NCBI GenBank assembly: GCA_026416295.1
Contig: JAOAFL010000080.1
Location: 341 to 64,340 of the forward strand
Origin: Burkholderiales bacterium
Lineage (GTDB): Bacteria; Pseudomonadota; Gammaproteobacteria; Burkholderiales; SG8-39
DNA length: 64,000 bases
Reading direction: 5' to 3'
Shown piece after piece: positions 1,847 through 20,246 of the stretch. The notes beneath the pieces are model-generated. The model was not told the origin of the DNA. It ran no database searches and saw nothing but the letters and a program-made list of their open reading frames with translations. Position 1 is the first letter of the stretch, and each line of letters starts with the position of its first letter. The translations under genes were made by a program, and so were the position numbers.

Positions 1847-1865
1847 GGCGGCCCGCGCCGCCCTA
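1844..1865. terminator. GC-rich hairpin between convergent genes, embedding both stop codons
   Basis: TAGGGCGGC-CCGC-GCCGCCCTA forms a 9-bp stem. TAG of the Uma2 gene (1844-1846) and CTA (TAG of the minus-strand cNMP gene, 1863-1865) are part of the stem. No U-tract. Confidence 0.35.
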
Positions 1866-2315: not shown

Positions 2316-2343
2316 GCGGGTCCTCCTCGCGCCGGTCGGCGGA

Positions 2344-5073: not shown

Positions 5074-5162
5074 AGCGGCGCCGGCCGGTGCGCGTGCAAA
5101 CGGCGCCGGTTCGTGCCACAGTAGGCGCCGGAGGCAGCGTGGCGTCAGGCGCCGGATTCAGC

Positions 5163-5984
5163 GTGCGGTTCTGGGGGGTGCGCGGCTCGATCGCGTGCGC
5201 CGGACCGCAAACCGCGCGCTACGGCGGCAACACCGCCGCGCTCGAGGTACGCTGCGGCGAGCGGCGGCTCCTTTTCGACGCCGGCACCGGTATTCGCTAT
5301 CTCGGCAACGCGCTCGAGGCGGCGGGCCGCGCCCGGCTCGAAGCCGATCTGTTTCTCTCGCACACCCACTTCGATCACATCTGCGGGCTGCCGTTCTTCA
5401 AGCCGTTTTTCACCCCGCAGAACCGCTTTCGCCTCTGGGCCGGGCACCTCGGCGGCCGCATGGCGCTGCGGCAGGTGCTCGCCGAATTCATGATGTCGCC
5501 GCTCTTTCCGGTGCCGCCGGAGGTGTTTCGCGCCGAGATCGACTACCGCGATTTCGCCGCCGGCGAGACGCTCGAGCTCGGCGACGGGATCCGGCTGCGC
5601 ACCGCGCCGCTCAACCATCCGGACGGCGCGACCGGCTACCGCGTCGAATACGGCGGCCGCGCGCTCTGCTACGTCACCGACACCGAGCACGTGCCCGGTG
5701 CGCCCGACCGCAATGTCCTCGGCCTGATCGCCGGCGCCGACCTGGTGATCTACGACTGCACCTACACCGACGAGGAGTACGCCGAGGGCGAGGTCGTCGG
5801 CTGGGGGCACTCGACCTGGCAGGAGGCGGTGCGGCTGTGCCGCGCCGCCGGCGCGCGGCGGCTCGCGATCTTTCACCACGAGCCGGACCGCTCGGACGAG
5901 GCGCTCGATGCGATCGGCGCGCAGGCGGCGGCCGAGTTCGCGGGCGCGCTCGTCGCCCGCGAGGGCATGACGCTCGACCTCTGA
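5163..5984 (+). CDS. MBL-fold metallo-hydrolase
   Basis: 'VRFWGVRGSIACAGP...GGNTAALEV...LLFDAGTG' and the metal motif 'SHTHFDHICG'. GTG 5163 chosen because homologues characteristically begin near 'FWG.RGS'. The longer GTG 5088 start is possible. Confidence 0.8.
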   Translation: MRFWGVRGSIACAGPQTARYGGNTAALEVRCGERRLLFDAGTGIRYLGNALEAAGRARLEADLFLSHTHFDHICGLPFFKPFFTPQNRFRLWAGHLGGRMALRQVLAEFMMSPLFPVPPEVFRAEIDYRDFAAGETLELGDGIRLRTAPLNHPDGATGYRVEYGGRALCYVTDTEHVPGAPDRNVLGLIAGADLVIYDCTYTDEEYAEGEVVGWGHSTWQEAVRLCRAAGARRLAIFHHEPDRSDEALDAIGAQAAAEFAGALVAREGMTLDL

Positions 5985-6016: not shown

Positions 6017-7171
6017 CTACTTGTAGGGGTCGGCGGCGTCGCGCAGCCCGTCGCCGAAGAAATTGAACGCGAGCACGACGACGAACACCGGCACCACCGG
6101 CAGCATGAGCCACGGGTAGAGCGCGACGACGTTGATGTTCTGCGCCTCGTTGAGGAGCACGCCCCAGCTCGTGACCGGCGGGCGCAGCCCCAGGCCGAGA
6201 AACGAGAGCGCGGTCTCGCCGAGGATCATGCTCGGCACCGAGAGCGTGAGCGAGGCGATCAGGTGGCTCGTGAACGAGGGCAGCAGGTGCCGGCCGATGA
6301 CGCGCGCGGGGCTCGCGCCCATCAGCACCGCCGCGGTGGCGAAGTCTTCCTCGCGCAGCGCAAGGAGCTTCGAGCGCACCGCGCGCGCAAGGCCCGGCCA
6401 GTCGAGCAGCCCGAGGATGATCGTAATGCCGAAATAGACGAGCACCGGGCTCCAGGTGACCGGCAGCGCCGCCGACAGCGCCATCCACAGCGGCAGCTCG
6501 GGAAACGAGCGCACGATCTCGATCGCGCGCTGGATCACGTTGTCCACCCAGCCGCCGTAGTAGCCGGAGATGCCGCCGAGCACGATGCCGATCACGAAAC
6601 TCACCGCGATGCCGAGCAGCCCCACGGTGAGCGAGATGCGCGTGCCGTAAAGGATGCGCGAAAGGACGTCGCGCCCCAGCCGGTCGGTGCCGAAGAGAAA
6701 GAACGTGCCCCCCTCGGCCGGGCAGACGAGGTGAAAGTCCCATTCGACGAGACCCCAGAACTCGTACGCGTCGCCGCGGCAGAAGAAGCGCAGCGGCTGC
6801 ACCTTCGCCGGGTCCGGCGTGTACTCGCGCGTCATCGTCTCCAGGTTCAGCCGCATCGTGTAGCCGTAGACGAACGGCCCGACGAAGCGCCCGTCGTGGA
6901 ACAGGTGCACGCGCTGCGGCGGCGCGTAGATGTGGCGCGGATCGCGCGTGTGCAGGTTGTAGGGCGCGAGGATCTCGGTGACGAGGATCGAGGCGTAGAA
7001 CGCCGCGAGCACCCACATCGAGATCACCGCGATGCGGTGGCGGCGGAACTTCCACCACATGATGCGCCACTGGCTCGCGCGGTAGAAGCGCTCCTCGCCG
7101 GGCGTGAGCGCTTCGACCGCGTTCGGGTCGAACGGCTCGGTCGAGACGTAATGCGGGATGCGCCGCGTCAT
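6017..7171 (-). CDS. ABC transporter permease, YejE/DppC-like (peptide/opine family)
   Basis: Tail of ORF 6017..7888 from 'MTRRIPHY'. ATGA overlap with the upstream permease. 'LFGTDRLGRDVLSRILYG', 'AAVLMGASPARVIGRHLLP'; ends 'GDGLRDAADPYK'. Confidence 0.9.
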   Translation of the reverse strand: MTRRIPHYVSTEPFDPNAVEALTPGEERFYRASQWRIMWWKFRRHRIAVISMWVLAAFYASILVTEILAPYNLHTRDPRHIYAPPQRVHLFHDGRFVGPFVYGYTMRLNLETMTREYTPDPAKVQPLRFFCRGDAYEFWGLVEWDFHLVCPAEGGTFFLFGTDRLGRDVLSRILYGTRISLTVGLLGIAVSFVIGIVLGGISGYYGGWVDNVIQRAIEIVRSFPELPLWMALSAALPVTWSPVLVYFGITIILGLLDWPGLARAVRSKLLALREEDFATAAVLMGASPARVIGRHLLPSFTSHLIASLTLSVPSMILGETALSFLGLGLRPPVTSWGVLLNEAQNINVVALYPWLMLPVVPVFVVVLAFNFFGDGLRDAADPYK

Positions 7172-8193
7172 TTCGCCGCCCGGCCCGTGAGCCGAATGCG
7201 CGGATCGAGCGCCGCGAGCGCGAGGTCGGAGAGAAAAACGCCGACCACGGTAAGCAGCGCGAGGAACATGAGGAACGAGCCGGCGAGGTACTGGTCCTGG
7301 CTGCGCAGCGCATCGAGCAGCATCGGCCCCTCGGTCTGCAAGGACAGCACCACCGAGACGATCGCCGAGCCCGAGATGAGCGAGGGCAGCAGGTTGCCGA
7401 GGTCGGCGATGAAGGGGTTGAGCGCCATGCGCAGCGGATACTTCACGAGCAGCCGTAGCTCGGGCACGCCTTTCGCGCGCGCGGTGACCACGTACTGCTT
7501 CTGCAGCTCGTCGAGGAGGTTGGCGCGCAGCCGACGGATCATCGCCGCCGTGCCCGAGGTGCCGATCACGATCACCGGGATCCACAGGTGCGAGAGCACC
7601 GAGCCGACCTTCGCCCAGCTCCAGGGCTGGTCGAGGTACTCGGGGTCCATCAGGCCGCCGATCGAGAGCCCGAACTGCACGTTGGCGAAGTACATGAGCA
7701 CGAGCGCGAGCAGAAAGTTGGGCGTCGCAAGGCCGAGGTAACCGATGAGCGTCAGGCCGTGGTCGCCCCAGCTGTACTGGTGCGTCGCGGCGTAGACGCC
7801 GATCGGGAACGCGACCGCCCAGGTGAAGACGATCACCGAGAAGTTGAGGACGAAGGACAGCAGCAGCCGCTCGCGCACCACCTCCCACACCGGCATGTCG
7901 TGCTCGAACGACCAGCCCCAGTCGCCCTGCAGCAGCCCCGAGAAGCCGCGCTCGCCGGGCCAGATCCCGACCCAGATCGCGTACTGCTCGAGAAATGGCT
8001 TGTCCAGCCCGTACTGCTTGCGCAGGAACGCGGCGCGCTCAAGGGCCGCCTTGTCGCCCTGGCTCTGCAGCTCCGCGATCTGGTTGCTGAGGTAGTCGCC
8101 CGGCGGAAGCTGGATGATGACGAAGGTGATGAAGCTGATGACGGCGAGCGTCAGGAACATCACGAGCACGCGGCGGACGGTGTAGGCGAGCAT
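7168..8193 (-). CDS. ABC transporter permease, YejB/DppB-like
   Basis: 341-aa ORF. 'MLAYTVRRVLVMFLTLAVISFITFVIIQLPPGDY', 'ARAKGVPELRLLVKYPLR', ends 'DPRIRL'. Confidence 0.9.
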   Translation of the reverse strand: MLAYTVRRVLVMFLTLAVISFITFVIIQLPPGDYLSNQIAELQSQGDKAALERAAFLRKQYGLDKPFLEQYAIWVGIWPGERGFSGLLQGDWGWSFEHDMPVWEVVRERLLLSFVLNFSVIVFTWAVAFPIGVYAATHQYSWGDHGLTLIGYLGLATPNFLLALVLMYFANVQFGLSIGGLMDPEYLDQPWSWAKVGSVLSHLWIPVIVIGTSGTAAMIRRLRANLLDELQKQYVVTARAKGVPELRLLVKYPLRMALNPFIADLGNLLPSLISGSAIVSVVLSLQTEGPMLLDALRSQDQYLAGSFLMFLALLTVVGVFLSDLALAALDPRIRLTGRAAK

Positions 8194-8216: not shown

Positions 8217-10130
8217 TCAGCGGCCCGCCTCGCGCGCGCCGTCGGCGAACCAGAACGTGTCCGGCCGGTAGATGCCGAAGAACGCGCCCGGGTCCCAGTT
8301 GTAGAGGCCCTTCGCGGGCACGTTGCGCAGGGCGTTGCGCACGACGACCGGCTGCGCCACCCCGTTCACCACGCCGATCACGAACTGCTGGTCGGCGTGG
8401 ATCGCGAGCATGCGGTGCCAGATGCGCGCGCGCTCCTCGCGGCTCGAGGCGCGGCGCCAGGCGTGGTAGAGCCGCAGCAGCTCGGCCGCCTCGGGCAGAT
8501 CGGGCGGCTCGCCCGCCTTGCCGCCGGTCTCGAAGTGCTGGCCGAAACGCGGCCATTGCAGTTGCTGCTGGCTGGTGGGCGCGAGCTCGTCGGGACTGGT
8601 GTCCGCGGTCGGGATGCCGTTTTCCCAGCCGCTCCAGACCGACATCAGCGCCTGGCCCGAGAACACGCGGTTTCGCAGCACCTCGCGCTGCTGGGGCTTG
8701 GAAAAGAGCTTGATGCCCACTTCGCGCCAGGTCTCGCGGATGAGTTCCAGGATGTCGGTCTGCTCGGTCGACTCGCCCGCGGTCTCGACGATGATCTCGA
8801 GCGGGCGCCCGTCGGGCAGCCGACGCACGCCGTCGCCGCCGCGCCGCAGCCCGACCTCGTCGAGCAGCCGCTCGGCCGCCTTGCGATCGTACTGCGCCCA
8901 CTTCGTCTGATACTCCTTGCGGTAGAGCGGGCTTTCGGCGAGCACGGTGTTGTTGGCCTCGTTCGCAAGACCGAAGTAGAGCACCTGGTTGACGAGCGAG
9001 CGGTCGATCGCGAGCGAAAGCGCGCGCCGGAAGCGCACGTCGCGCACGACCGCGCGCCAGACCGGATCGGCGACGTTGAGATTCGGATAGAGGGCGAAGT
9101 GCGCCCCGCGCGCCGTCTTCCAGAGGTGCACGCGATAGTCGTTCGCCGTCTCGCCCTTCTTGAGAAAGGTGTAGTTGTGAAACTGCAGGTCGCGCGCCTG
9201 CAGGTCGGACTCGCCCGCGCCCGCCTTCGCCGGGATCAGTTTCGCCTCCACGACGCCGAGCACGACGCGGTCGATGTAGGGCAGCTGCCGGCCCTCCGGG
9301 TCGACGCGGTGAAAATACGGATTGCGCACCGCGACGAAGCGGTCCGCGGGCGGCCGTGTCGTGTTCACCCACGGCTGCAAGGTGGGGAGCCTGGGGTTGT
9401 CGAACTGGTACATGTTGTCCTCGCGATTGTGCACCGCCGCCCAGCCGCGCTTTGCGCCGGCCGCCGCCTCGGCCGCCTTCGGGTTGTACTTGCGGTGAAA
9501 CTGCTTGAGGTAGTGCGCGGGGCGGAAGATGAAGAGCGGCGAGGCGCCCGCAAGGCGCGGCAGAAAATCCGGGTTCGGTTTCGACCAGCTGTAGCGCACG
9601 GTGTGCTTGTCCGGATACTCGACCTTCGGCGGCTCGCCGTCCACCAGCAGCTCGGACGGCGGTCCGGCGGGCGAAAGCTCCCGGTCGTTCGCGACGTCTT
9701 CCCAGTAGTAGCGGAAGTCCTCGGCCGTGAACGGGTGGCCGTCGGACCAGCGGTGGCCACGGCGCAACCGCATCGTGAAGACGCGATCGTCCTTCACCTC
9801 GATCGATTCCAGGATATCGGGCACGAGGTTCAGATGCCGGTCGTAGACGACGAGCCGCGCGTAGCCGTAGACCACCAGAAGGCGCACGTCGCGCGTGCGC
9901 CCGATCAGCGTGTTCAGCGTACCGCCGTGCCGGCCGGGCGCGGCCCCGGCGTCGAAGCGCACGACGAGCGGAGTGTCGGGCAGGCGCCGGGCGACCGGCG
10001 GCAACCGCCCGGCCTTCACCTCCTCGGCGAGCGCCGGCGGCTCGATGTACTTCATGGGCTGAGCGCGCAGGCCGGCCGCGGCGGCTGCGAGCGCCGCCGC
10101 GAGCGCAAGCGCCGCGCCCCACCGCCTCAT
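8217..10130 (-). CDS. periplasmic substrate-binding protein, family 5 (YejA/Opp-like)
   Basis: Part of the 1417-aa read-through ORF, from '[25 protein letters not shown]' (Sec signal). 637 aa. 'WSDGHPFTAEDFRYYWEDV' is typical of SBP_bac_5. ATGA overlap with the ATPase stop. Confidence 0.9.
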   Translation of the reverse strand: MRRWGAALALAAALAAAAAGLRAQPMKYIEPPALAEEVKAGRLPPVARRLPDTPLVVRFDAGAAPGRHGGTLNTLIGRTRDVRLLVVYGYARLVVYDRHLNLVPDILESIEVKDDRVFTMRLRRGHRWSDGHPFTAEDFRYYWEDVANDRELSPAGPPSELLVDGEPPKVEYPDKHTVRYSWSKPNPDFLPRLAGASPLFIFRPAHYLKQFHRKYNPKAAEAAAGAKRGWAAVHNREDNMYQFDNPRLPTLQPWVNTTRPPADRFVAVRNPYFHRVDPEGRQLPYIDRVVLGVVEAKLIPAKAGAGESDLQARDLQFHNYTFLKKGETANDYRVHLWKTARGAHFALYPNLNVADPVWRAVVRDVRFRRALSLAIDRSLVNQVLYFGLANEANNTVLAESPLYRKEYQTKWAQYDRKAAERLLDEVGLRRGGDGVRRLPDGRPLEIIVETAGESTEQTDILELIRETWREVGIKLFSKPQQREVLRNRVFSGQALMSVWSGWENGIPTADTSPDELAPTSQQQLQWPRFGQHFETGGKAGEPPDLPEAAELLRLYHAWRRASSREERARIWHRMLAIHADQQFVIGVVNGVAQPVVVRNALRNVPAKGLYNWDPGAFFGIYRPDTFWFADGAREAGR

Positions 10131-12028
10131 GCGAGAAGCTCGGAAAAATCGGCGCTCGAGCGCGCGCGCACGAAATGCCCGTTGCCGAGATCGAGCATCG
10201 GCGCGTGTTCGCCCGGCGCGAAGCGAAAAGGCGCCGGCCACGCCGCCGGGTCGGAAGCCCGTCCCTCCATCAGCGCCGCGAAATCGAGCTTGCGGTCGAG
10301 GTCGGGGTCCGGCACCGCCGCAAGCAGCGCGCGCGTGTACGGATGCACCGGCCGGCGGAACAGCTCGTCGTAGGGCGCGATCTCGACCAGGCGCCCGGCG
10401 CACATCACCGCGATCCGGTCGGCGAGGTAATGGACCACCGCGAGATTGTGCGAGATGAAGAGGTAGGTGAGCTGGAGCGCCGCCTTCAGATCGAGCAGCA
10501 GGTTCAGCACCTGCGCCTGCACCGAGACGTCGAGCGCCGAGACCGGTTCGTCGCACACGAGCAGTTGCGGGCCGAGCGCGAGCGCGCGCGCGATGCCGAT
10601 CCGCTGGCGCTGGCCGCCCGAGAAGCTGTGCGGGTAGCGGCGCAGATGCCGCACGTCCAGGCCGACCAGCTCGATCAGCTCCTTGACGCGCGCGTAGCGC
10701 TCGTCGGCGTCGCCGACGCCGTGGATGACGAGCGGCTCGGCGACGATGTCGTGCACCGTCATGCGCGGGTTGAGCGAGGAGAACGGATCCTGGAACACGA
10801 ACTGCACCTTGCGCCGGTAGGCGAAGAGCTCCTCGCCCGCGAGCGCGAGCACGTCGCGCGGGTGGCCGCGATCGTTGAACACGATCTCGCCGGCATCGGG
10901 CGTCACCGCGCGCAGGATCATCTTCGCGGTGGTGGTCTTGCCGCAGCCGGACTCCCCGACCAGCCCGAGGCACTCGCCGGCGTGCACGTGAAAGCTGACG
11001 TCGTCGACCGCGCGCACCTCGCCCGCAAGCCGCCGGCCGAAGAGCGTCCTTTTGCGCGTCTCGAAGCGCTTGACGAGATTGCGCACGACGAGCAGCGGAT
11101 CGCCGCCGGCGTGCGGCGCGTGCGGGCGGCCGGCGGCCGCGACAAGGCGCCCCGTTTCGACCCGCACCTCGCGGATCGGGGTGAGCCGCTCGCCCGGCGC
11201 CATGTTGAAGCGGGGCACTGCGCGCATGAGCGCCTTCAGGTACGGGTGCCGCGGGTCGCGGAAGATGTCCTCCGCCGTCCCGGCTTCGACCACGCGCCCG
11301 CGGTACATCACCACCACCTCGTCGGCCATGTTGGCGACCACGCCCAGATCGTGCGTGATGAGCAGCACCGCCATGCCGAATTCGCGCTGCAGCTCGCGCA
11401 GCAGATGCAGGATCTGCGCCTGGATGGTGACGTCGAGCGCGGTGGTCGGCTCGTCGGCGATGAGCAGCGCCGGCCGGCAGACGAGCGCCATCGCGATCAT
11501 CGCGCGCTGGCGCAGGCCGCCCGAGAGTTCGAACGGATAGGTGTGCTCGGCCTTCGCCGGGTCGGGAAAGCCCACGCGACGCAGCATCTCGCGCACGCGC
11601 TCGCGCCGCTCGGCGCGACCGAGGTCGGGCTGATGCAGCGCGAGCGCTTCGCCCACCTGGTCGCCGATCGTGTGCAGCGGCGAGAGCGCGGTCATCGGCT
11701 CCTGGAACACGATCGAGATGCGCGCGCCCCGGATGCGCCGCGCCTCTTCGCCCGCCGGATCGAGGCGCGACAGATCGACCGGCGCCCCGGGCCGCAGCGG
11801 GTCGCGAAACAGGATCTCGCCGGAGACGACCCGCGCGACCCGCGGCAGGATGTTCATCACCGCCTGCGCGACCATCGTCTTTCCCGAGCCCGATTCGCCG
11901 ACGAGTGCGACCGTGCCGCCCGGGGCGACGGTGAACGAGACCCCGTCGACCGCCTTCACCGTACCGGCGTCCACCGCCAGATGGACGCGCAGATCGCGCA
12001 CTTCGAGCAGCGTGTCGTCCGCGTTCAC
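10127..12028 (-). CDS. ABC transporter ATP-binding protein with duplicated ATPase domains (YejF-like)
   Basis: Tail of ORF 10127..12745 from GTG 12028 ('[13 protein letters not shown]'). Two Walker A motifs, 'GESGSGKT' and 'GESGCGKTT'. Two signatures, 'LSGGLRQR' and 'FSGGQRQR'. GTGA overlap with the upstream gene. Confidence 0.9.
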
Positions 12029-12501
12029 GGGGCAGCCTCGAGCGCCCGAAGATTCGCCGCCGAGGCGGCGTCGAGTTCCACGCCGCTGCGCGCTGCGGCC
12101 GCTGCCGCCGCGCGCGCGAGGTCCGCGAACCCGGGCAGGTCCGAGTCGATGCGGACGGTGCGGCTCGAGTCCTGCAGGCGCAACTGCATCCATCCCCCTT
12201 CGCGGTCGCCGCGCGTCGAGTAGTAGCGAAGGCGCATCGCGCGCAGCTCCGCCCACCGGATCTCGGCGCCCAGCGGCCCGCGGACGCGGATCCCGGTCTC
12301 GTCCCACGCGACGCAAGTGAGCTGGCGGCAGACCGTGCGCGCGAAGTATAAGAGGAAGAGCGCGCCGGCCGCGGCCGCCGCCACCGCCACCGCGCGCGCG
12401 GGCGCGGCGAGCCCGAGCAGCGCGCCGCAGAGCGCGATGCCCGCGGCAGCGCGCGCGTAGTCGGCGGCAAGCGACCGTGCCGGGTACCGTTCGACGCGCA
12501 T
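12025..12501 (-). CDS. small membrane protein, 2 TM helices plus PH-like (bPH/YdbS-type topology) cytoplasmic domain
   Basis: Tail of ORF 12025..13317 from 'MRVERYP'. Two hydrophobic helices ('AAAGIALCGALLGLA', 'AVAVAAAAAGALFLLYF') followed by a ~90-aa soluble part. High GC3. Lies 2 nt after the deacetylase stop and shares a GTGA overlap with the ATPase. The domain call is topological only. Confidence 0.6.
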   Translation of the reverse strand: MRVERYPARSLAADYARAAAGIALCGALLGLAAPARAVAVAAAAAGALFLLYFARTVCRQLTCVAWDETGIRVRGPLGAEIRWAELRAMRLRYYSTRGDREGGWMQLRLQDSSRTVRIDSDLPGFADLARAAAAAAARSGVELDAASAANLRALEAAP

Positions 12502-12503
12502 CG

Positions 12504-13256
12504 TCAGGAGAACAGTTCCGCGGCGTCGAGCCAGCGTGCGCCCGCCTCGCGCGTCGCGTCGAACAGACGCTCGACGAACGCCCACGCGGCAGGCTCGTGC
12601 ACCGCGTGGTGCGTAAGAAGCCCGGTCGGCTCGTCGGCCTGCGCCGCCCCGGCGCGGCGCGCCGCGAGATGCGCGACGAGCGCTCCGAGCGCGCGCGCCT
12701 CGCCGACGAAGCGGCGCGAACCCCGCCAATCGACGAGGTCCACATGCGCGTTCACTTCGCGCAGCCCCGGCGCGGCGAACGGCGCGCGGCGCGCGCCGTA
12801 GCGGCTGAGCGCGCGAAACCCCGCGCCCGCGAGCCGCGCAACGAGCGCGGGCGCGATCCGGTTCCAGGGCGGCGCGAGCACCGCGAGCGCGCGCGCCCCC
12901 GCAAGGCGCGCAAGCCGCGCGCGCGCCTCGGCCAGGCGCGCAAGCGCCGACTGCGGCGGCTCGTTCGCCGGGAACTCGCTTTTCTTGTCGTTCGCGCCGG
13001 CACGGTTTTCGTGGTCGGCGCCGTGCTGGAGCACGGCCACCTGCGGCGGCAGGCGCGCGAACAGCGCCGGCTCGGCGCGCGCCGGAATCACCGCGAGCGC
13101 AAGCGGCATGCCCGAGCGCGCGGCGAGCGAAACGAGCCGCGCAAGCGCGGCGTCGGCGGCCGCGGCGTCGTCGTCGCGCCACCAGAACGAGGCGGTGCGC
13201 CCGGCGTCGCGCCAGCGCGCAAGCTCCTCGGCGAGCGCCCTCCAGCCGGCGTTCAT
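12504..13256 (-). CDS. polysaccharide deacetylase-like (CE4/NodB-like) protein
   Basis: Tail of ORF 12504..14420 from 'MNAGWRAL'. 'FWWRDDDA' resembles NodB motif 1 (Asp pair). 'LQHGADHEN' resembles H-x-x-x-H motif 2. ATGA overlap with the upstream GT. Confidence 0.7.
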   Translation of the reverse strand: MNAGWRALAEELARWRDAGRTASFWWRDDDAAAADAALARLVSLAARSGMPLALAVIPARAEPALFARLPPQVAVLQHGADHENRAGANDKKSEFPANEPPQSALARLAEARARLARLAGARALAVLAPPWNRIAPALVARLAGAGFRALSRYGARRAPFAAPGLREVNAHVDLVDWRGSRRFVGEARALGALVAHLAARRAGAAQADEPTGLLTHHAVHEPAAWAFVERLFDATREAGARWLDAAELFS

Positions 13257-14410
13257 CGCGCAAGCCAGCCGTGAAGGAGCGCCGCGCTTTTCGCCGCCCC
13301 TGCGAGGTCGAGCGCATCGCGGGGCGGCGCAGGCCGCGCGAGCGCGCGTCCGATCGCCGCAGCGAGCGTGCGCGGCGAAAGCTGCGCTTCGTCGAGCGCC
13401 TCGATCAGCCCGCGCTCGGCAAAGAGCCGCGCGCGCAGCCGCTGCTCGGTCTCGCCGCCGCCTGAAAACGGCACCGCCACCGCGCGCACGCCGCCGGCGA
13501 GCACCTCGGCGAGCGTGTTGTAGCCGGCCTGGCTCACCGAGAGCGCGCACGCCGCAAGGCGCGAGCCGAAATCGGCGCGGAAGCGCTCGAGCACGATCCC
13601 ACCCCCGCCTTCGACGCGCGCACGCGCCGCGAGCGCCGCGAACGCCTCTTGCGGGAGATTCGCGCCCGCGAGCAGGCGCCAGCGACGCTCGGCGAGCGCG
13701 CTCAGGCGCCGCGCGCGGATCGCGGTCTCGAGCAGCCGCGCGCCGACCGCGCCGCCGCCCGCCGAGACGAGCACCTCGCCCGCCGCATCGGCGCAAGGCG
13801 CGGCCGGGGGTTCGGCGATGTAGCCGGTGTAGTGCAGCCGCGCCCCGAGCCGCGCCGCATGACGAAAGGTGAGATCGAAGGGCACCGCGCGGGGGTCGCT
13901 GTGCACGAGCACGCGGTCGTAGTAGCGCTCGAAGATCGCGAGCATCTCGTCCTGGCGCGCCGGGTCCTTCTGTCCGCCGCCGAGGATATCGCGCACCGAA
14001 GCGACGACGAGCGGCCGGGGGCGGGCCGCGGCCGCCTCTTCGAGCAGCGGCAGCAGCTCGAAGCGCATCTGCCGCCGACCGAACGGGAAAAGCTCGGTCA
14101 CCAGCGCGTCGGCGCGCGCGGCGCGCCAGGCCGAAAGAAGCGCTGTGCGCCGCGCGGCGCGCCAGGCGTCGTCCACCGGCCGGCCCGTTTCGTCGAGCAG
14201 GGTTCGAAAGGTCGCATCGGCGGCGCTCGCCGGCGCAAGCTGCACGATCCGGGCCCCCGCGGGCATGCGTTCCGGGACCGGCACGCCGCCGGTCGCGAAC
14301 GTCACGTCGAGCCCGCGCGCGACGAGCGCGCGCGCGATCGCGGCCGCGCGCACAAGGTGCCCGATGCCGAGCAGGTGCTGCACGTAAAAGAAGACGCGGG
14401 CGCGAGTCAA
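13253..14410 (-). CDS. glycosyltransferase, MurG-like/GT28 C-terminal type (COG4671-like)
   Basis: Tail of ORF 13253..15613. 'VFFYVQHLLGIGHLVRAAAIARAL' and 'SQAGYNTLAEVLAGGVRAVAVPF'. Start proposed at TTG 14410, giving a TTGA overlap with the upstream GT4 stop. Confidence 0.75.
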   Translation of the reverse strand: MTRARVFFYVQHLLGIGHLVRAAAIARALVARGLDVTFATGGVPVPERMPAGARIVQLAPASAADATFRTLLDETGRPVDDAWRAARRTALLSAWRAARADALVTELFPFGRRQMRFELLPLLEEAAAARPRPLVVASVRDILGGGQKDPARQDEMLAIFERYYDRVLVHSDPRAVPFDLTFRHAARLGARLHYTGYIAEPPAAPCADAAGEVLVSAGGGAVGARLLETAIRARRLSALAERRWRLLAGANLPQEAFAALAARARVEGGGGIVLERFRADFGSRLAACALSVSQAGYNTLAEVLAGGVRAVAVPFSGGGETEQRLRARLFAERGLIEALDEAQLSPRTLAAAIGRALARPAPPRDALDLAGAAKSAALLHGWLAR

Positions 14411-15540
14411 AGCGCGGCAAGGAGCGCCGCGAGCCGGCGCGCGGCGACCTGCAGACTGCGTTCGCCCGCGACGAATTCGGCGGCCGCGCGCCCGAGCGCC
14501 GACCGCCGGTCGGGATCCACGAGGAGCGTGCGCACAGCGGCCGCGAGCGCCGCTTCGTCGCCCGGAGGAACGAGCAGGCCGCTTCGGCCGTCTGCGACGA
14601 CGTCGGGCACGCCGCGCACAGCGCACGCGACCACCGGAATTCCGGCCGCCTCGGCTTCGAGCAGCGCCATGCCGTAGGCCTCGTTCACCGCCGGCCAGAC
14701 GCAAAGATCGGCGGCCGCCGCGAGCGCGGCGACCTCGCGCTCGCGCAGCGCGCCGAGGAACGTCGCGCGCCCGGGGACCGCGGCGGCGAACGCCGCCTCG
14801 ACGTCGGCGCGCGCCGGGCCGTCGCCCGCGACGAGCAGATGCCAGCGAAGGTCGGCCAGCCGCGCGAGCGTTCGCGCGAGCGCACGGTAGGAGGCGAGCT
14901 TGTCGCCGGCGCGCATCATCGCCGCGATCGCGATCCACGGCACGCCGTGATCGAGCCCCTGCGCTCGAGCGAGCCGCGCGCGGTGCTCGGCGCGCCCGGC
15001 CGAGGCGCGCGCAAACGGCGCGACGTCGAGAAACGGCGGCAGCCAGACGATCCGCCCGGGGCGCGCGAGCCCCGAAAGTCCCGCGGCGTCCTCGCGCGTC
15101 GGACAGAGGAGGAGGTCCGCGCGCCGGATCGCGGCTTCCGCGCCGGCGTGGCCGATCGCCCAGGGGCCGTGCGCGCGTTTTGCCGCGTAGGAGGCTTCGG
15201 CGATCACGTAGGGAATCCCGAGCGCGGCGCTCGCCTGCGGCCCGAGCCAGTCGGGCGCCTTGTAGTAGACGTGGTACGTGAACCAGAGGTCCGGGCGCGC
15301 TTGCGGCGAATCGCTCAGCCAGCGCGCAACGAGCGTGCGCGCGAGCGCGTGCCCCTGCTCGGCGAGGGCCCGCTGGCGAGCGGCGTCGCCCGCGCCATCG
15401 TAGGCGCGGAACGTCGACACCAGCTCGACGCGGTGACCGGCCGCGGTGAGCGCGTCCATGTAGAGCCCCGCGACGCGCCGGTCGCCCGAGGGCGTGCCGT
15501 GCGTCGGCGGCTTCATCGGCGCATAGAACGCGATGCGCAT
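14407..15540 (-). CDS. glycosyltransferase family 4 (GT-B, Glycos_transf_1)
   Basis: Tail of ORF 14407..17220 from 'MRIAFYAPMKPP'. EX7E-type motif 'NEAYGMALLEAEAAGIPVVA'. Confidence 0.85.
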   Translation of the reverse strand: MRIAFYAPMKPPTHGTPSGDRRVAGLYMDALTAAGHRVELVSTFRAYDGAGDAARQRALAEQGHALARTLVARWLSDSPQARPDLWFTYHVYYKAPDWLGPQASAALGIPYVIAEASYAAKRAHGPWAIGHAGAEAAIRRADLLLCPTREDAAGLSGLARPGRIVWLPPFLDVAPFARASAGRAEHRARLARAQGLDHGVPWIAIAAMMRAGDKLASYRALARTLARLADLRWHLLVAGDGPARADVEAAFAAAVPGRATFLGALREREVAALAAAADLCVWPAVNEAYGMALLEAEAAGIPVVACAVRGVPDVVADGRSGLLVPPGDEAALAAAVRTLLVDPDRRSALGRAAAEFVAGERSLQVAARRLAALLAAL

Positions 15541-16796
15541 ACGCGCGCCTCGCTCTGCGCCCCGGCGAGCCCGAAGCGCGCCGCGAGCCGCTCGAGGTTT
15601 GGGGCGAGCGCAAACCGGGTCTCGACGCGCCGGCGCGCCGCCGCCCCGAGCCGCGCGCGTCGCAGGGGGTCGCGCATGAGCGAAGCGAGCGCCTCGGCGA
15701 GCGCCGCCGGCGCCTCGGCCGGAACGAGCACGCCGCTCACCCCGTCCTCGAGCAGCTCGGGGATGCCGGCGACGCGCGTCGCGACGCACGCGAGCCGCTG
15801 GCTTGCGGCTTCGAGCAGCACGTTCGGCAAGCCGTCGCGGTCGCCGCCCGGGGCGATGCGGCTCGCGAGCACGAAGAGGTCCGCGGCGCGGTAGGCCGCG
15901 AGCACCTCCGGCTGCGCGCGCGGCCCGCGCCAGTCGATCCGGTCGGCGATGCCGAGCCGGCGCGCGCGGCGCGCAAGGCGCGCAGCGAGCGGGCCGCCGC
16001 CGATGTGCTCGAGGCGCCAGTGCAGATCGCGCGGCAGCTGCGCAAGGGCTTCGAGGAGCACGTCGGTGCCCTTCTTTTCGACCAGCCGCGCGACCGAGAG
16101 CAGCCGCACCGGATCCCGCGGATCGCTCGCGTCGCGCGGCGGACGGGCCGCGGGCGGCGGCGGAAACCGCGCGAGATCGAGACCGTGGTAGACGAGCGCG
16201 ACCCTGCCCGGCGGCGCGAGCGCCGCCAGGTGCTCGTACGCCGCCGCGTTGCACGCGACCGCCCACGCGCAGTCGGCGAGCTTCTCGCGCTTTTCCCACG
16301 CCGGGGTCGTCCAGACGTCCTTGGCGTGCGTCGAACAGCTCCAGGCGAGACCGCGCAGGATCGCGCCGTAGCGCGCGACCGACGCCGGCGTGTGCAGAAA
16401 ATGCGCGTGAAGCCGCTCGACGTCGGGCGGCAGCTCCGCCGCGAGCACGAGCGCCTGCCCGAACCGGCGCACCCGGTTCGGCGTCGGATCGCGCGCGAGG
16501 TCGGCGAGCCAGCGCGCGCGCGCCGCCCGGTACGTCGGCCAGCGGCGCACCGCGCGCCAGGCGCGAAGCACGCGCAACGGCTCGCGCGACAGGTACTCCG
16601 GAAGGTAACGCACCTCGGCGCGCACCTCGTCGTGCACCGGATGCCGGCGCGCATCGGTCGGCCGGCGCAGCGCGACGATGAGGATCGCGAGTCCCCGGCG
16701 CTCGAGCGCCGCGATCTCCTGCGCGATGAAGGTCTCGGACAGCCGCGGCCAGCCCTTCAGCACGAACGCGACGCGGCCGCCGGCTGCGCGCTGCAT
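15513..16796 (-). CDS. glycosyltransferase family 4 (WcaL-like N-terminus)
   Basis: Tail of ORF 15513..17597 from 'MQRAAGGRVAFVLKGWPRLSETFIAQEI'. 'GLPNVLLEAASQRLACVATRVAGIPELL'. 28-nt overlap with the next GT4. Confidence 0.85.
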   Translation of the reverse strand: MQRAAGGRVAFVLKGWPRLSETFIAQEIAALERRGLAILIVALRRPTDARRHPVHDEVRAEVRYLPEYLSREPLRVLRAWRAVRRWPTYRAARARWLADLARDPTPNRVRRFGQALVLAAELPPDVERLHAHFLHTPASVARYGAILRGLAWSCSTHAKDVWTTPAWEKREKLADCAWAVACNAAAYEHLAALAPPGRVALVYHGLDLARFPPPPAARPPRDASDPRDPVRLLSVARLVEKKGTDVLLEALAQLPRDLHWRLEHIGGGPLAARLARRARRLGIADRIDWRGPRAQPEVLAAYRAADLFVLASRIAPGGDRDGLPNVLLEAASQRLACVATRVAGIPELLEDGVSGVLVPAEAPAALAEALASLMRDPLRRARLGAAARRRVETRFALAPNLERLAARFGLAGAQSEARVCASRSMRR

Positions 16797-16819: not shown

Positions 16820-18106
16820 TCAGCGCGGCCGCGCGATCGCCCGCACCCCGGCTTCGGCGGCCGCCGAGCGCGTCTCGATCCAGGGCGCGACCAGCCGCGC
16901 GACGTTTTCCAGCCCCTCGAGCAGCCCCGGCACGACGACTTCCGAGGGCCGGTTCTGGCGCGGCAGATTGCGGATCGCGGCGGCCATCGTCTCCGGATCG
17001 TAGCGCCCGTCGTCGGCGAGCATCGCGACGAGCCCGAGGCTTGCCGCGCGCGAGGTGCGGATGAACTGCTCGAGCCGCGGCGCGGTGCGCGGCACGAGCA
17101 GCGCGCGTTTGTCGAGCGAGAGCACCTCGCAGAAGGTGTTGTAGCCGCCCATCGCGACCACCGCCGCCGCGCGCGCGACGAGCGCCTCGAGGTTGCTGTG
17201 GAACGTGATGCAGTCGACACGCTTCAGGCGCGCCGCGCGATCCATGAATTCGGCCTGGCGCTCGGGCTGCATGAACGGCCCGAGCACGAGGAGCGCCGGA
17301 TACGGCAGCAGCGGATCGTGCTCGTAGGCGCGCAACACCCATTCGACGAGCGCCTCCCCGTCGCCGCCGCCGCCGGTCGTCACGAGCAGATACGGTCGCT
17401 GCGTGATCTCGGGCAGCCGCGGCGGCGCCCCCCAGGTGGGCACCTCGCGGCGCAGGTATCCGGTATAGACCATCTTCTGGCGCACGCGGATCGGAAGCGA
17501 GATCCCCTCGAGCGGGTCGCAGATCTGCGGCAGGCCGTAGATCCATATCTCGTCGTAGAGGTCGCGCAGCGCGGGCAGCACGTTCTTGCGCTGCCACTCG
17601 GGCTCGAGCGCGCGCGGCTCGTCCATCACGTCGCGCAGGCCGAGCACGAGGCGCGTGCCGCGCGGTTTGAGCATCTCCAGCGTCTCGCGCACTTCGCCGC
17701 GCAGTCCGAGCGGCTCCTTGTCGACGATGAACAGATCCGGCTCGAACATCTCGGCGGTGTGCCGGATGATCGAGCCGCGCAGCCGCAGCGTCTGCTCGAT
17801 GTCGAGGTGCAGGTTGAGCGAGGTGTATTCGCCGTTGCGCAGCTTGATCACGCCGGGGATGCGCACGAAATCGACGCGCGCGCGAAAGTCGAACGAGCCG
17901 ATGATCGGCGAGCCCGACAGGATCAGGACCGAGAGCTGCTTGAAACGATCGACGAGCGCGTGCGCGATCGTGCGACAGCGGCGCAAATGCCCGAGGCCGA
18001 AGGTGTCGTGGCTGTAGATGAGGATCCGGCCGTCCGTGCGCCTGCCGTTCACGTCGTCGTCACCTTTCGGCGCCTCCCTGCGCGCCCGCACCGGCGAATG
18101 GCGCAT
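16820..18106 (-). CDS. glycosyltransferase, MurG-like/GT28 C-terminal type (COG4671-like)
   Basis: Tail of ORF 16820..18817. 'ILIYSHDTFGLGHLRRCRTIAHAL', 'TTGGGGDG', 'AMGGYNTFCEVLSLDKRALLVPR'. ATG 18106 is the longest start. GTG 18052 ('VNGRRTDGRILIY') is an equally plausible alternative. Confidence 0.8.
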   Translation of the reverse strand: MRHSPVRARREAPKGDDDVNGRRTDGRILIYSHDTFGLGHLRRCRTIAHALVDRFKQLSVLILSGSPIIGSFDFRARVDFVRIPGVIKLRNGEYTSLNLHLDIEQTLRLRGSIIRHTAEMFEPDLFIVDKEPLGLRGEVRETLEMLKPRGTRLVLGLRDVMDEPRALEPEWQRKNVLPALRDLYDEIWIYGLPQICDPLEGISLPIRVRQKMVYTGYLRREVPTWGAPPRLPEITQRPYLLVTTGGGGDGEALVEWVLRAYEHDPLLPYPALLVLGPFMQPERQAEFMDRAARLKRVDCITFHSNLEALVARAAAVVAMGGYNTFCEVLSLDKRALLVPRTAPRLEQFIRTSRAASLGLVAMLADDGRYDPETMAAAIRNLPRQNRPSEVVVPGLLEGLENVARLVAPWIETRSAAAEAGVRAIARPR

Positions 18107-18108
18107 TC

Positions 18109-18114
18109 TATAAT
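18109..18114 (+). promoter_or_regulatory. candidate -10 box (TATAAT) for the QueC-like gene
   Basis: Perfect TATAAT, 26 nt upstream of ATG 18140 in the short divergent gap. GGAG Shine-Dalgarno at 18126-18129. No convincing -35 box identified. Confidence 0.35.
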
Positions 18115-18139
18115 GGGTCGCGAGCGGAGATCGGCCCCG

Positions 18140-18757
18140 ATGACGACCCTCGTGATGCTCTCGGGCGGGCTGGACAGCACGGCGTGTCTGTACAAGCTGC
18201 TCCTGGAAACCGACGGGCCGATTCACGCGCACCACATCCGCCTGATCAACCGGGAAGGGCGCGCGCGCGCGGAGCAGGACGCGGTCGAGGCGATCGTCGC
18301 CTGGTGCCGCAAGCACCTTCGCCCCTTTCGCTACTCCGAGAGCGCGCTCGACTTCTCGCAGCTCGAGGCGATCCCGATCGACTGGATGGCGATCGCCTAC
18401 GTCGCCTGCCAGGTCGCGATCGACACCCCGGGCTGCCGGCGCATCGCCGTCGGCATCCTCGCGGCCGATCTGGACGAGACGCGTCGGCGCGTCTCGGAAA
18501 GCCAGCGGCGCGTCTTCGACGCGATGTACCGGTACTACCGCGCTCGCAAGCTCGGCGAACCCGAGGTCGAATGGATTTATCCGGTCTACGCCCTCGACAA
18601 GGCGGCGGTGGCGGCCCTGCTGCCTGCCGAGCTGCGGGCGTTCGCCTGGTCGTGCCGCCGCCCGGTGACGACCGAGGACGGCTACCGCGCCTGCGGCGAG
18701 TGCAAACCCTGTCGCAAGCGCGCCGAGGTCGCGCAAGCGACGAAACTTGCGCTCTAG
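18140..18757 (+). CDS. QueC/ExsB-family PP-loop ATPase paralogue (205 aa)
   Basis: Tail of ORF 17198..18757 from 'MTTLVMLSGGLDSTACL' (SGGxDS PP-loop). C-terminal QueC-type Zn cluster C172-x12-C185-x2-C188-x2-C191 ('SCRRP...ACGECKPCRKR'). The middle region diverges from canonical QueC. Confidence 0.8.
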   Translation: MTTLVMLSGGLDSTACLYKLLLETDGPIHAHHIRLINREGRARAEQDAVEAIVAWCRKHLRPFRYSESALDFSQLEAIPIDWMAIAYVACQVAIDTPGCRRIAVGILAADLDETRRRVSESQRRVFDAMYRYYRARKLGEPEVEWIYPVYALDKAAVAALLPAELRAFAWSCRRPVTTEDGYRACGECKPCRKRAEVAQATKLAL

Positions 18758-18868
18758 AGGCGCACTTCCCGGGCGTGCGCGGGCGACGAGGCCGCCGAAC
18801 GATGCGTCCGAGCGCAAACGCGATCGAGCGCTCGCGGCGTCGCGCCGTGCGAGCCCATCGGCCGGAAT

Positions 18869-18985
18869 TCAGTCGCCTTCGCGCGGCGGGCCGCGCCGGT
18901 CGGAACGCCGCGGCGCGGCGGTCCACCAAACGATGAGGATGAGCAGCGCGAGCGCCACCGCCATCTCGAGAAGGATCACCCACAT
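18869..18985 (-). CDS. possible 38-aa single-TM small protein (low confidence)
   Basis: From the internal Met of ORF 18869..19054: 'MWVILLEMAVALALLILIVWWTAAPRRSDRRGPPREGD'. Clean hydrophobic helix followed by a basic tail. Nearly all codons end in G/C. Antisense to the 5' end of mltA. Confidence 0.3.
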   Translation of the reverse strand: MWVILLEMAVALALLILIVWWTAAPRRSDRRGPPREGD

Positions 18986-20246
18986 CGCGCGCGCGCTCCT
19001 GACGGTTCCCGCCGCGATTGTAGTCTTCGTCGCCGGCTGCGCTGCGCCCGGCACGCCCTGCCCGCCGTGCGCGCCGCCGCCCGGCGCGGCGGCGCGCTAC
19101 GAGCCGGTCGCGCACGCGGCGCTGCCCGGCTGGGCGAACGGCTCTCATGCGCGCGCGCTCGCGGCGTTCGTCGCAGGATGCGCGGCGCTCGATCCGGCGC
19201 ACGCGCTTTCGGCCGCCTGCGCCGCAGCGCGCGCGCTCGCGCCCGCCGACGACGCCTCGGCGCGCCGATTCTTCGAACAGGCGTTCGACGCCTACGCGGT
19301 GCTCGCGCCGGACGGCGCGGCCGAAGGGCTCGTCACCGGCTATTACGAGCCGGTGCTCGCCGGCAGCCGCCGCCGAAGCGCGCGGTTCCGCTATCCGGTC
19401 TTCGGCGTGCCCGATGACCTCGTCGCGGTCGACCTCGCCTCGGTCGCGCCGGAGATCCGCCACCTGCGCCTGCGGGGGCGGCTCGAGGGGCGGCGGCTCG
19501 TGCCGTACTGGACGCGCGCCGAGATCGAAGCGCGCGGCGCCGAGTTCCCCGCCCCGGTGCTCGCTTGGGTCGAGGACCCGGTCGAGCTTTTCTTCCTCCA
19601 CATCCAGGGTTCGGGCCAGCTCGTGCTCGAGGACGGCGCGCGCCTGCGGCTCGCCTACGCCGACCACAACGGGCATCCGTACCGCTCGCTCGGCCGCCAC
19701 CTCGTCGAACGCGGCGAACTGGCGCCACACGAAGCCTCCATGCAGGGCATCAAAGCGTGGGCGGCCGCCAATCCGGAGCGCCTTGCCGAAGCGCTCGCGG
19801 CGAACGCGAGCTACGTCTTTTTCCGCGAGCTCGGCGCGCAGGGCGGACCGATCGGTGCGCTCGGCGTACCGCTCACCGCCGGCGCGAGCCTCGCGGTCGA
19901 TCCGCGCGCGATCCCGCTCGGCGCGCCGGTGTACCTCGCGACCACCTGGCCCGCGTCGTCGCGCCCGCTCGAGCGGCTGATGGTGGCGCAGGACACCGGC
20001 GGCGCGATCCGCGGCGCGGTGCGCGCCGATTTCTTCTGGGGCACGGGCGCCGAGGCGGGCACGCAGGCCGGCCGCATGCGCGAGCGCGGCAGGCTGTGGC
20101 TGCTGTGGCCGCGCGGCGCGCCGCTGCCGCAAGGCCGCGCGCCTAGCGGCCGGGGCGTGCGGCTTCCTTCGCCGCCGCGTCGAGCATCTCGCGAAGCTGC
20201 GCCGCCGGCAGGCCGCCGCGGATGCGCTCGCCGTTCGCGAGAATGA
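18933..20246 (+). CDS. mltA: membrane-bound lytic murein transglycosylase A
   Basis: Part of ORF 18747..20246. Lipobox 'VFVAGC'. 'TGYYEP', 'LFFLHIQGSG', 'GHPYRSLG', 'VAQDTGGAIRG..RADFFWGTG'. Start at ATG 18933 (or 18939). The last ~45 aa are an R/P-rich read-through tail. Confidence 0.85.
   Translation: MRMSSASATAISRRITHIARALLTVPAAIVVFVAGCAAPGTPCPPCAPPPGAAARYEPVAHAALPGWANGSHARALAAFVAGCAALDPAHALSAACAAARALAPADDASARRFFEQAFDAYAVLAPDGAAEGLVTGYYEPVLAGSRRRSARFRYPVFGVPDDLVAVDLASVAPEIRHLRLRGRLEGRRLVPYWTRAEIEARGAEFPAPVLAWVEDPVELFFLHIQGSGQLVLEDGARLRLAYADHNGHPYRSLGRHLVERGELAPHEASMQGIKAWAAANPERLAEALAANASYVFFRELGAQGGPIGALGVPLTAGASLAVDPRAIPLGAPVYLATTWPASSRPLERLMVAQDTGGAIRGAVRADFFWGTGAEAGTQAGRMRERGRLWLLWPRGAPLPQGRAPSGRGVRLPSPPRRASREAAPPAGRRGCARRSRE

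Follow-up and report, generated by a model that had tools for sequence, protein, structure and literature searches.

A QueC-like PP-loop ATPase linked to a glycosyltransferase operon in Burkholderiales, a candidate first representative of a separate branch of the QueC superfamily

A 64,000-nucleotide stretch of a Burkholderiales genome (GenBank assembly GCA_026416295.1, contig JAOAFL010000080.1, positions 341 to 64,340 of the forward strand; hereafter the window) encodes a 205-amino-acid QueC-like PP-loop ATPase, which we call QCL. Its gene is divergent from that of a GT28_C-type glycosyltransferase (GTA), the first gene of an operon of glycosyltransferases and ABC transporters. Judged from its sequence, QCL is a full-length homologue of QueC but not a canonical QueC, and it is best explained as the founder of a separate, so far uncharacterised branch of this superfamily. 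Most likely QCL modifies the product of the operon rather than making a tRNA base. As its specific function we propose, with a probability of about 0.45, that it would be an ATP-dependent adenylating amidotransferase or ligase responsible for an optional tailoring of the operon's glycan or glycoconjugate. This reading is the best supported because the predicted ATP machinery and zinc ribbon are kept, the deazaguanine pocket is exchanged and the gene is linked to GTA.

QCL belongs to a family remotely related to QueC

The open reading frame of QCL is coding-like in its GC content at codon positions 1/2/3 (0.68/0.49/0.90). Its start codon is confirmed by an identical deposited protein of 205 amino acids (MCX7961706.1, ‘hypothetical protein N2653_09055’, from a Burkholderiales metagenome-assembled genome (MAG)). 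Pfam QueC (PF06508) is the best family for QCL, with 33.1 bits against a gathering cut-off of 22 and a match in two pieces, whereas the scores stay below the cut-offs of the QueC equivalog TIGR00364 (20.2 vs 150.3 bits), of PRK11106 (13.5 vs 378) and of the QatC model NF041925 (13 vs 280 bits). The PADLOC ‘QueC’ model gave a weak full-length match (24 bits, E 1e-5), and a sequence search of the PDB returned only marginal PP-loop or zinc-ribbon matches (QueC 17 bits, Cap9 14.5, QatC 11.5). When the QCL family profile was compared to E. coli QueC with hhalign, the alignment spanned 179 columns at 96.9 % probability (E 2e-10, 23 % identity), and QCL is therefore a true but remote homologue of QueC.

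More than 1,000 close relatives of QCL were found, nearly all of them 195–205 amino acids long and most from metagenome bins of Burkholderiales or Betaproteobacteria. A profile search of 1.84 billion representatives yielded 822 clusters (50 % identity) at E ≤ 1e-10 and 1,697 at E ≤ 1e-3, and PF06508 was the best family for all 47 members sampled. The QCL family is a sizeable, uncharacterised family of its own, made up of ~200-amino-acid proteins. A survey published in 2026 divides PF06508 into ten clusters, namely QueC, QatC, LarE, PfkB-linked, WbpG-containing, GMP synthase, Cap9 and three archaeal clusters (PMC13329287); the motifs and gene neighbourhood of the QCL family match none of the ten. 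Literature searches on COG4671, DUF3095 and Methyltransf_17 found no papers, and a search on QueC together with glycosyltransferases found nothing relevant to the QCL family.

The PP-loop and four cysteines are kept and several QueC motifs are lost

Conservation was examined in 25 close homologues, a clade with 62–91 % identity, and in 47 distant members at 30–40 % identity. The PP-loop and four cysteines are invariant in both sets. These are the features that had first drawn attention to the protein in an earlier note on this DNA (SGGLDS at residues 8–13; C172, C185, C188 and C191), and all of them can be read in the translation of the open reading frame. Within the PP-loop, the wider family shows no variation at G9, G10, D12 and S13 and almost none at S8. 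The complete set of residues that are invariant or nearly invariant in the 47 distant members comprises S8, G9, G10, D12, S13, L21, H31, R41, E45, A48, D81, G105, K154, W170, C172, R173, P175, C185, C188 and C191, and a family signature, W-S-C-R-x-P, precedes the cysteine ribbon.

E. coli QueC (231 amino acids) is 26 residues longer than QCL. The motifs of canonical QueC are SGGxDS, YxQxHxxE, VPxRN, YPDC, K165 and C(x)8CxxCxxC, and the substitutions Y35A, R99A, Y131A and Y189A each abolish the function of the E. coli enzyme (PMC13329287). QCL contains the first of these motifs as SGGLDS, and hhalign identifies kept counterparts of QueC R38 (R41), E42 (E45), D127 (D110) and K165 (K154). The four cysteines of QCL align with C188, C197, C200 and C203 of E. 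coli QueC in a spacing of C(x)12CxxCxxC, as compared to C(x)8CxxCxxC. The YxQxHxxE motif is absent, as Y35, Q37 and H39 have no counterpart and only the arginine and the final glutamate (R41 and E45) are found. YPDC, including Y131, falls in a deletion of QCL, and Y189, which is next to the first zinc cysteine of QueC, is replaced by the invariant R173. VPxRN is also lost: QueC R99 and N100 are placed in a gap by hhalign, or opposite D81 and W82 in the alignment of the earlier note, which fits the predicted helix boundaries better, and the motif is missing either way. Both differences on which that note had built, IPIDW in place of VPGRN and a length about 25 residues short of QueC, were borne out, with IPIDW at residues 78–82 and a shortfall of 26. 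The invariant arginine that replaces Y189, together with the conserved R41, D81 and W170, suggests an anionic, probably polar substrate.

Three additional cysteines, C56, C90 and C99 (18305–18307, 18407–18409 and 18434–18436), are shared by all members of the close clade but are not conserved beyond it, and they may make up a metal or redox site specific to that clade. A family-wide Fe-S cluster at these positions was considered and rejected, since the cysteines are lost in the wider family.

The AlphaFold2 model of QCL is a PP-loop Rossmann fold (pLDDT 84, pTM 0.83). A Foldseek search of the PDB matched it to NcsA, TilS, PH1257, MnmA, GMP synthetases and argininosuccinate synthetases with TM-scores of ~0.4–0.55 and 13–19 % identity, and no QueC was among the best 50 matches. 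Scores of ~0.5 confirm the superfamily and do not discriminate the subfamily. Among the [4Fe-4S] PP-loop sulfurtransferases (NcsA/TtuA, LarE), NcsA matched the model at TM 0.50–0.53, but these enzymes have three family-wide conserved cluster-binding cysteines near the active site, whereas C56, C90 and C99 of QCL are conserved only in its close clade.

These matches raise the possibility that QCL modifies RNA, tRNA or a nucleotide, by thiolation, a lysidine-like reaction or amination, and that it is either unrelated to a glycan or tied to cyclic-nucleotide genes. NcsA, TilS and MnmA, followed by GMP synthetases, are the top structural matches, C56, C90 and C99 are possible ligands of a metal or a cluster, QCL often has a nucleotide cyclase gene as its neighbour, and the distant members of the family occur in varied contexts. 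However, the structural similarity is limited to TM ~0.5 and low identity, the three cysteines are not conserved family-wide, and no RNA-binding or THUMP/TRAM-type domain is present in the 205 residues of QCL. The adjacency to cyclases is explained by the position of QCL at the head of the glycosyltransferase operon, where a cyclase is found with or without QCL. We therefore regard an RNA- or nucleotide-modifying enzyme as unlikely.

No queuosine genes were found near QCL

No match was obtained when E. coli QueA, Tgt, QueC, QueD, QueE, QueF and FolE were searched by tblastn against the 64-kb window (best E 0.018–0.06), in agreement with the earlier observation that it holds no other queuosine genes. 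SGGxDS occurs only once in the six frames of the window, and an Rfam search over 17500–19200 identified no riboswitch, preQ1 element included. Likewise, no que gene was found beside QCL in ~85 related loci. The same search detected queD, queE and folE following a canonical queC in an Acidobacteria MAG (locus L009, 10001–12024), which served as a positive control; the weak QCL match at this locus is the canonical queC itself.

If QCL were an ordinary QueC, divergent in sequence but still producing preQ0 for queuosine, it would lie beside a glycosyltransferase operon only incidentally. In favour of this reading, QCL passes the Pfam QueC cut-off (33 vs 22 bits) and contains the PP-loop and the four ribbon cysteines, and its relatives are named ‘7-cyano-7-deazaguanine synthase’ by JGI pipelines. 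Nevertheless, PGAP names QCL ‘hypothetical’, the TIGR00364 and PRK11106 scores are a fraction of their cut-offs (20 vs 150 and 13.5 vs 378), counterparts of the required Y35, R99, Y131 and Y189 are missing, the ~85 loci are devoid of neighbouring que genes, and the linkage to GTA described below is tight. We consider an ordinary QueC highly improbable. The low TIGR00364 score and the loss of YxQxHxxE, VPxRN, YPDC and Y189 also agree with the description of QCL in the earlier note as QueC-like yet not canonical. The same note had taken the family name ExsB, which came from a Rhizobium exopolysaccharide locus, as a precedent for a link to sugar metabolism. This precedent is weak, and WbpG (see below) is a better one; ExsB we take to be simply the rhizobial orthologue of QueC.

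QCL is linked to GTA in related loci

In order to follow the gene neighbourhood of QCL, loci were collected from genomes (5) and metagenomes (80) and by several contig look-ups, and 74 of them had enough flanking sequence to decide on linkage. A genome-contig scan with the single QCL protein had recovered only three true relatives, and the loci that were used came from a metagenome scan with an alignment of QCL relatives. In 72 of the 74 decidable loci, a GTA orthologue (80–92 % identical, identified by tblastn with the window proteins) adjoins QCL. The two genes are co-directional, QCL followed by GTA, in 54 of these loci (median gap ~50 bp) and divergent as in the window in 17, and in the last one a cyclase-like gene is inserted. 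Single-linkage clustering grouped the QCL sequences from the linked loci into 11 clusters when the threshold was 80 % identity and into 40 when it was 85 %. The QCL–GTA adjacency thus persists through inversion, and conserved linkage to a glycosyltransferase gene, which the earlier note had put forward as a check on its interpretation, is found in 11 clusters and in two orientations.

While the GTA side of QCL is constant, the neighbour on the far side varies, with at least six kinds observed: MltA, a cyclic-nucleotide-gated channel, SDR, a nucleotide cyclase, toxin-antitoxin genes and a DEP protein. GTA is more conserved than QCL (84–86 % vs 65–71 %). In the co-directional loci the gene order is QCL, GTA, two GT4 glycosyltransferases, a His_Phos_1 phosphatase in some of them, a GT28 glycosyltransferase, a deacetylase-like protein, in some a membrane protein, and then the ABC ATPase, substrate-binding protein and permeases of an importer, all with minimal gaps. 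The exception to the linkage is L003/L004, where QCL lies behind genes for a nucleotide cyclase and a BON protein and near DUF3095. Cyclase and DUF3095 genes are also part of the rhizobial version of the cluster.

The operon was also examined from its own side. Plasmids also carry GTA homologues of ~50–70 % identity, with 274 records found, the majority of them from Rhizobium, Sinorhizobium, Ensifer and Azospirillum. No operon gene co-varies with the presence or absence of QCL, and only a part of the QCL-positive operons encode the His_Phos_1 phosphatase. A search of L096 and L098, two operons that lack QCL, found no remnant of the gene.

A possible tailoring enzyme of the operon's product

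To our knowledge, every PP-loop enzyme characterised so far adenylates its substrate on a carbonyl oxygen, and ammonia, an amine or sulfur then receives the carbon activated in this way. Adenylation followed by displacement of AMP is common to QueC, the N-acetyl-sugar amidotransferases and diphthine-ammonia ligase. By analogy, QCL would be a zinc-containing PP-loop ATP pyrophosphatase with ATP probably bound via SGGLDS. It would adenylate a small molecule on a carboxyl (or amide carbonyl) oxygen, and ammonia or an amine of the substrate would displace AMP, resulting in an amide, an amidine or possibly a nitrile. This small molecule would not be 7-carboxy-7-deazaguanine (CDG) but would come from the pathway of the neighbouring operon, as an intermediate or as its product. 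The earlier note had likewise supposed that the protein may adenylate a substrate of the neighbouring pathway in place of making preQ0, and its interpretation is largely supported, with two corrections, namely that the gene is accessory to the operon and that ExsB is not the fitting precedent. In the window QCL would be expressed from a bidirectional promoter common with the operon, and in most relatives it would be the first, probably leaderless or short-leader, gene.

A more far-reaching proposal is that QCL represents a new branch of the QueC scaffold that carries out ATP-dependent conjugation on a glycan or glycoconjugate, and not on a nucleobase or a protein, within a hitherto unrecognised system for the synthesis, export and import of glycans in Beta- and Alphaproteobacteria that is linked to genes of cyclic-nucleotide signalling. 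We regard this as possible but doubtful. Examples of such a conjugation would be the ligation of a sugar acid with an amine or with a peptide taken up by the importer, the acylation of a deacetylated glucosamine, similar to the steps from MshB to MshC in mycothiol synthesis, or the conversion of a sugar carboxylate to a carboxamide or nitrile.

Several observations weigh against assigning QCL to the tailoring of a glycan. The loci come mostly from limited Burkholderiales-like metagenomic lineages, and part of the linkage could therefore be inherited synteny. Six independent operons with a GTA 85–93 % identical to that of the window include QCL in three cases (L097, L099/L100 and L102) and lack it in the other three (L096, L098 and L101), and tblastn of QCL against the PLSDB plasmids found no match, so that none of the 274 GTA-carrying records has it. 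The operon thus does not need QCL, which is accessory to it. The window operon contains no obvious carboxylate-generating enzyme, and the UDP-sugar dehydrogenase is confined to the rhizobial version. The best Foldseek matches in the PDB, at TM ~0.5, are PP-loop enzymes that modify tRNA and not sugar enzymes. Lastly, distant members of the family (30–40 % identity) adjoin unrelated genes, such as those for a SAM (S-adenosylmethionine) methyltransferase, a flavin monooxygenase or OsmC, which indicates that the QCL family overall is not glycan-specific.

Comparison to known systems

QueC itself (TIGR00364; PF06508 cluster 1; PDB 3BL5 and 2PG3) is of the same superfamily as QCL, is similar in size and in its single domain, and is homologous to it from the PP-loop to the four C-terminal cysteines. 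It differs in that QCL has the family-specific HH at residues 31–32, D81 and W-S-C-R-x-P signature, and is linked to a glycosyltransferase operon instead of to queD and queE.

The best precedent for the probable mode of action of QCL is offered by the WbpG N-acetyl-sugar amidotransferases, reported as PP-loop enzymes of lipopolysaccharide O-chain synthesis (PMC10607449), which form subcluster 2 of PF06508 cluster 5 (PMC13329287). They share their Pfam family with QCL, and their genes lie in polysaccharide loci, where they serve the biosynthesis of glycans. However, WbpG proteins are 300–400 amino acids long and carry CxxC(x)6CxC in a motif order unlike that of QueC (PMC13329287), whereas QCL has 205 amino acids and lacks this cysteine pattern. 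No amidotransferase model was among the Pfam and NCBIfam matches of QCL listed at E ≤ 1.

PF06508 cluster 4, the PfkB-linked cluster, resembles QCL in being proteobacterial, slightly shorter than QueC and endowed with a kept PP-loop and a variant cysteine motif. Cluster 4 proteins are distinguished by YGQ(x)6E, CH(x)5CxxCxGCxK and PfkB neighbours, none of which QCL has.

Cap9 of type IV CBASS and QatC of QatABCD are small or remodelled QueC scaffolds with a role outside tRNA and a tight link to partner genes, as is proposed for QCL. By comparison to them, QCL could be a protein ligase that attaches a small-molecule carboxylate to the N-terminus or a side chain of an operon protein, for example GTA, and so acts as an activation switch. 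The QueC scaffold has been recruited twice for ATP-dependent N-terminal protein modification (10.1101/2025.04.06.647259; PMC13329287), and both the full-length PADLOC ‘QueC’ match and the tight pairing with GTA, which is conserved more than QCL, are compatible with this function. Yet the neighbours of QCL are glycosyltransferases and ABC transporters and not defence partners, with no CD-NTase, QatA/B/D, TGT or OGG gene nearby, and the QatC model is missed by a wide margin (13 vs 280 bits). Cap9 keeps the CDG pocket, and the CDG-binding motifs that it keeps are lost in QCL. In the loci read, the N-termini of GTA are variable (MNGRR, MRGRR, MKSRR and others) and have no glycine at position 2, and GTA operons work without QCL in many genomes. 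A protein ligase is thus quite unlikely, and a tailoring enzyme of the glycan or glycoconjugate remains our preferred reading of QCL.

The QueC scaffold has lately been shown to be re-used in anti-phage protein modification, cofactor sulfuration and sugar amidination, and the QCL family would add a branch with a concrete, testable genomic partner. This partner operon is itself flagged here as a conserved, uncharacterised system of soil Burkholderiales and rhizobial megaplasmids, in which genetics is feasible. For annotation, QCL-like proteins should not count as QueC when the capacity for queuosine is deduced from metagenomes.

A recurring AT box in the control region

The earlier note had described a divergent control region of 33–87 bp between QCL and the first glycosyltransferase gene, depending on the start of the latter. 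The upper value holds: GTA starts at GTG 18052, as in its orthologues and in the deposited 410-residue protein, and the gap is therefore 87 bp, while the alternative start that would leave 33 bp is unlikely. GTA orthologues share a start at an MN/MR..R motif with a strong Shine-Dalgarno sequence upstream.

The TATAAT that had been noticed at 18109–18114 is present, and it belongs to a recurring 10-bp box, ATTCTATAAT, which reads ATTATAGAAT on the opposite strand. The box consists of two back-to-back -10 hexamers, TATAAT on the plus strand, directed toward QCL, and TAGAAT on the minus strand (18110–18105), directed toward the glycosyltransferase operon. It was found exactly or as a one-base variant (ATTCTATAGT, ATTCTATCCC or ATTTTATAAT) in all 14 other divergent loci that were read, and the same box is present in L006 and L010–L034. 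Owing to this recurrence, TATAAT is no chance match in a genome of 72 % GC. The box lies 9–50 nt, usually 9–25 nt, ahead of the ATG of QCL in the divergent loci, and it looks like a symmetric bidirectional promoter, as far as sequence comparison can tell. A simple scan for sigma-70 promoters and terminators found no matching -35 element and no consensus promoter or terminator, and the -10 box emerged only from the comparison of loci.

In most of the co-directional loci read, TAGAAT or TATTAT lies 6–10 nt ahead of the GTG or ATG of QCL with no Shine-Dalgarno sequence, which suggests that QCL is leaderless or near-leaderless in most of them. GTA in the co-directional loci is preceded by GGGGAGGGG.

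The operon and its neighbours

Table 1 Coordinates of QCL, its motifs, the control region and the operon genes in the window.
Feature	Coordinates	Strand	Basis or remark
QCL, QueC-like PP-loop ATPase	18140..18757	+	Open reading frame, Pfam QueC, hhalign
PP-loop SGGLDS, residues 8–13, ATP pyrophosphatase motif	18161..18178	+	Sequence, conservation
IPIDW, residues 78–82, in place of the QueC VPxRN loop	18371..18385	+	P79 and D81 family-conserved
Cys172-x12-Cys185-x2-Cys188-x2-Cys191, QueC-type ribbon with putative zinc binding	18653..18712	+	Alignment
GGAG, possible Shine-Dalgarno sequence, 10 nt ahead of the QCL ATG	18126..18129	+	Direct read
Conserved AT box ATTCTATAAT, putative promoter	18105..18114	.	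Cross-locus comparison
Divergent control region QCL/GTA, 87 bp	18053..18139	.	GTG 18052 start
GTA, GT28_C-type (GT-B) glycosyltransferase, 410 amino acids, MCX7961705.1	16820..18052	-	Conserved QCL partner
GT4a, GT4 glycosyltransferase	15513..16796	-	
GT4b, GT4 glycosyltransferase	14407..15540	-	
Second GT28_C-type glycosyltransferase	13253..14410	-	
250-amino-acid protein	12504..13256	-	No Pfam match; rhizobial homologue annotated ‘polysaccharide deacetylase family’
158-amino-acid predicted membrane protein	12025..12501	-	
Double ABC ATPase, Opp/Dpp-type importer	10127..12028	-	
SBP_bac_5 substrate-binding protein of the importer	8217..10130	-	
Two importer permeases	6017..8193	-	OppB-like 7168-8193, OppC-like ~6017-7180
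909-amino-acid ABC_membrane+ABC_tran exporter-like protein	2344-5073	-	46–47 % identical to Rhizobium counterpart
170-amino-acid cyclic-nucleotide-binding protein	1863-2375	-	46–47 % identical to Rhizobium counterpart

Two rhizobial regions, one on Shinella pShin-02 (L093) and one on pRL11 of R. johnstonii 3841 (L103), encode the same ABC importer, glycosyltransferases, 904-amino-acid ABC exporter and cyclic-nucleotide-binding protein. One or both of them add a deacetylase, an adenylate/guanylate cyclase, DUF3095, a small class I SAM methyltransferase and UDP-sugar dehydrogenases. The sole literature found on the cluster is transposon sequencing (Tn-seq) work in R. leguminosarum, where the neighbouring pRL110056 (UDP-GlcNAc 6-dehydrogenase) has root-colonisation and nodule phenotypes and pRL110053-54 are named optAD. 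Taken as a whole, the operon has the appearance of a glycan system, so far uncharacterised, with a link to cyclic-nucleotide signalling. The structure prediction for GTA (pLDDT 64) was too low in confidence for a fold search.

Genes for cyclases, cyclic-nucleotide-gated channels and BON or cytidylate-kinase-like proteins recur beside the operon in Burkholderiales loci. In many of the co-directional operons (for example L002 14434–15045, L102 9659–10270) the His_Phos_1 gene separates GT4b from the GT28-like gene; it is absent from the window operon (14407–14410) and from L096–L099. In the window, a gene of the Lactamase_B_2 metallo-beta-lactamase fold (5088–5984, plus strand) is located between the importer permeases and the exporter-like gene.

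In the closest relative (GCA_033582675.1, L001/L005; QCL 91 % identical), the GTA orthologue at ~8600–9900 appears broken into open reading frames of 67–178 amino acids with a tblastn identity of only 49 %. GT4a is shortened there, and GT4b and GT28 form a single fused gene, while QCL is intact. These changes reflect either decay of the operon or frameshifts in the assembly.

In one lineage a small methyltransferase gene lies convergent to QCL and directly downstream of it (L007 10753–11232, L041 1157–1636). Its product and the class I SAM methyltransferase encoded in the R. johnstonii cluster are homologues at 38–40 % identity, and the copy in L007 scores as Methyltransf_17.

Distant domains of the QCL family (P0203, P0245, P0265, P0128, P0146; L090) occur in fusions with an HlyC acyltransferase and a SAM methyltransferase, with a methyltransferase alone, or as tandem PP-loops, and one stand-alone distant member is translationally coupled to a Methyltransf_11 gene. 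These arrangements hint at other tailoring roles for the family. A theme common to them and to three distant gene contexts was sought, and none was transferable to the QCL clade.

GTA-like GT28 genes (34 % identity) were also found in Escherichia sp. from cattle faeces (H83 and H84, both on large plasmids; 10 Escherichia records in all).

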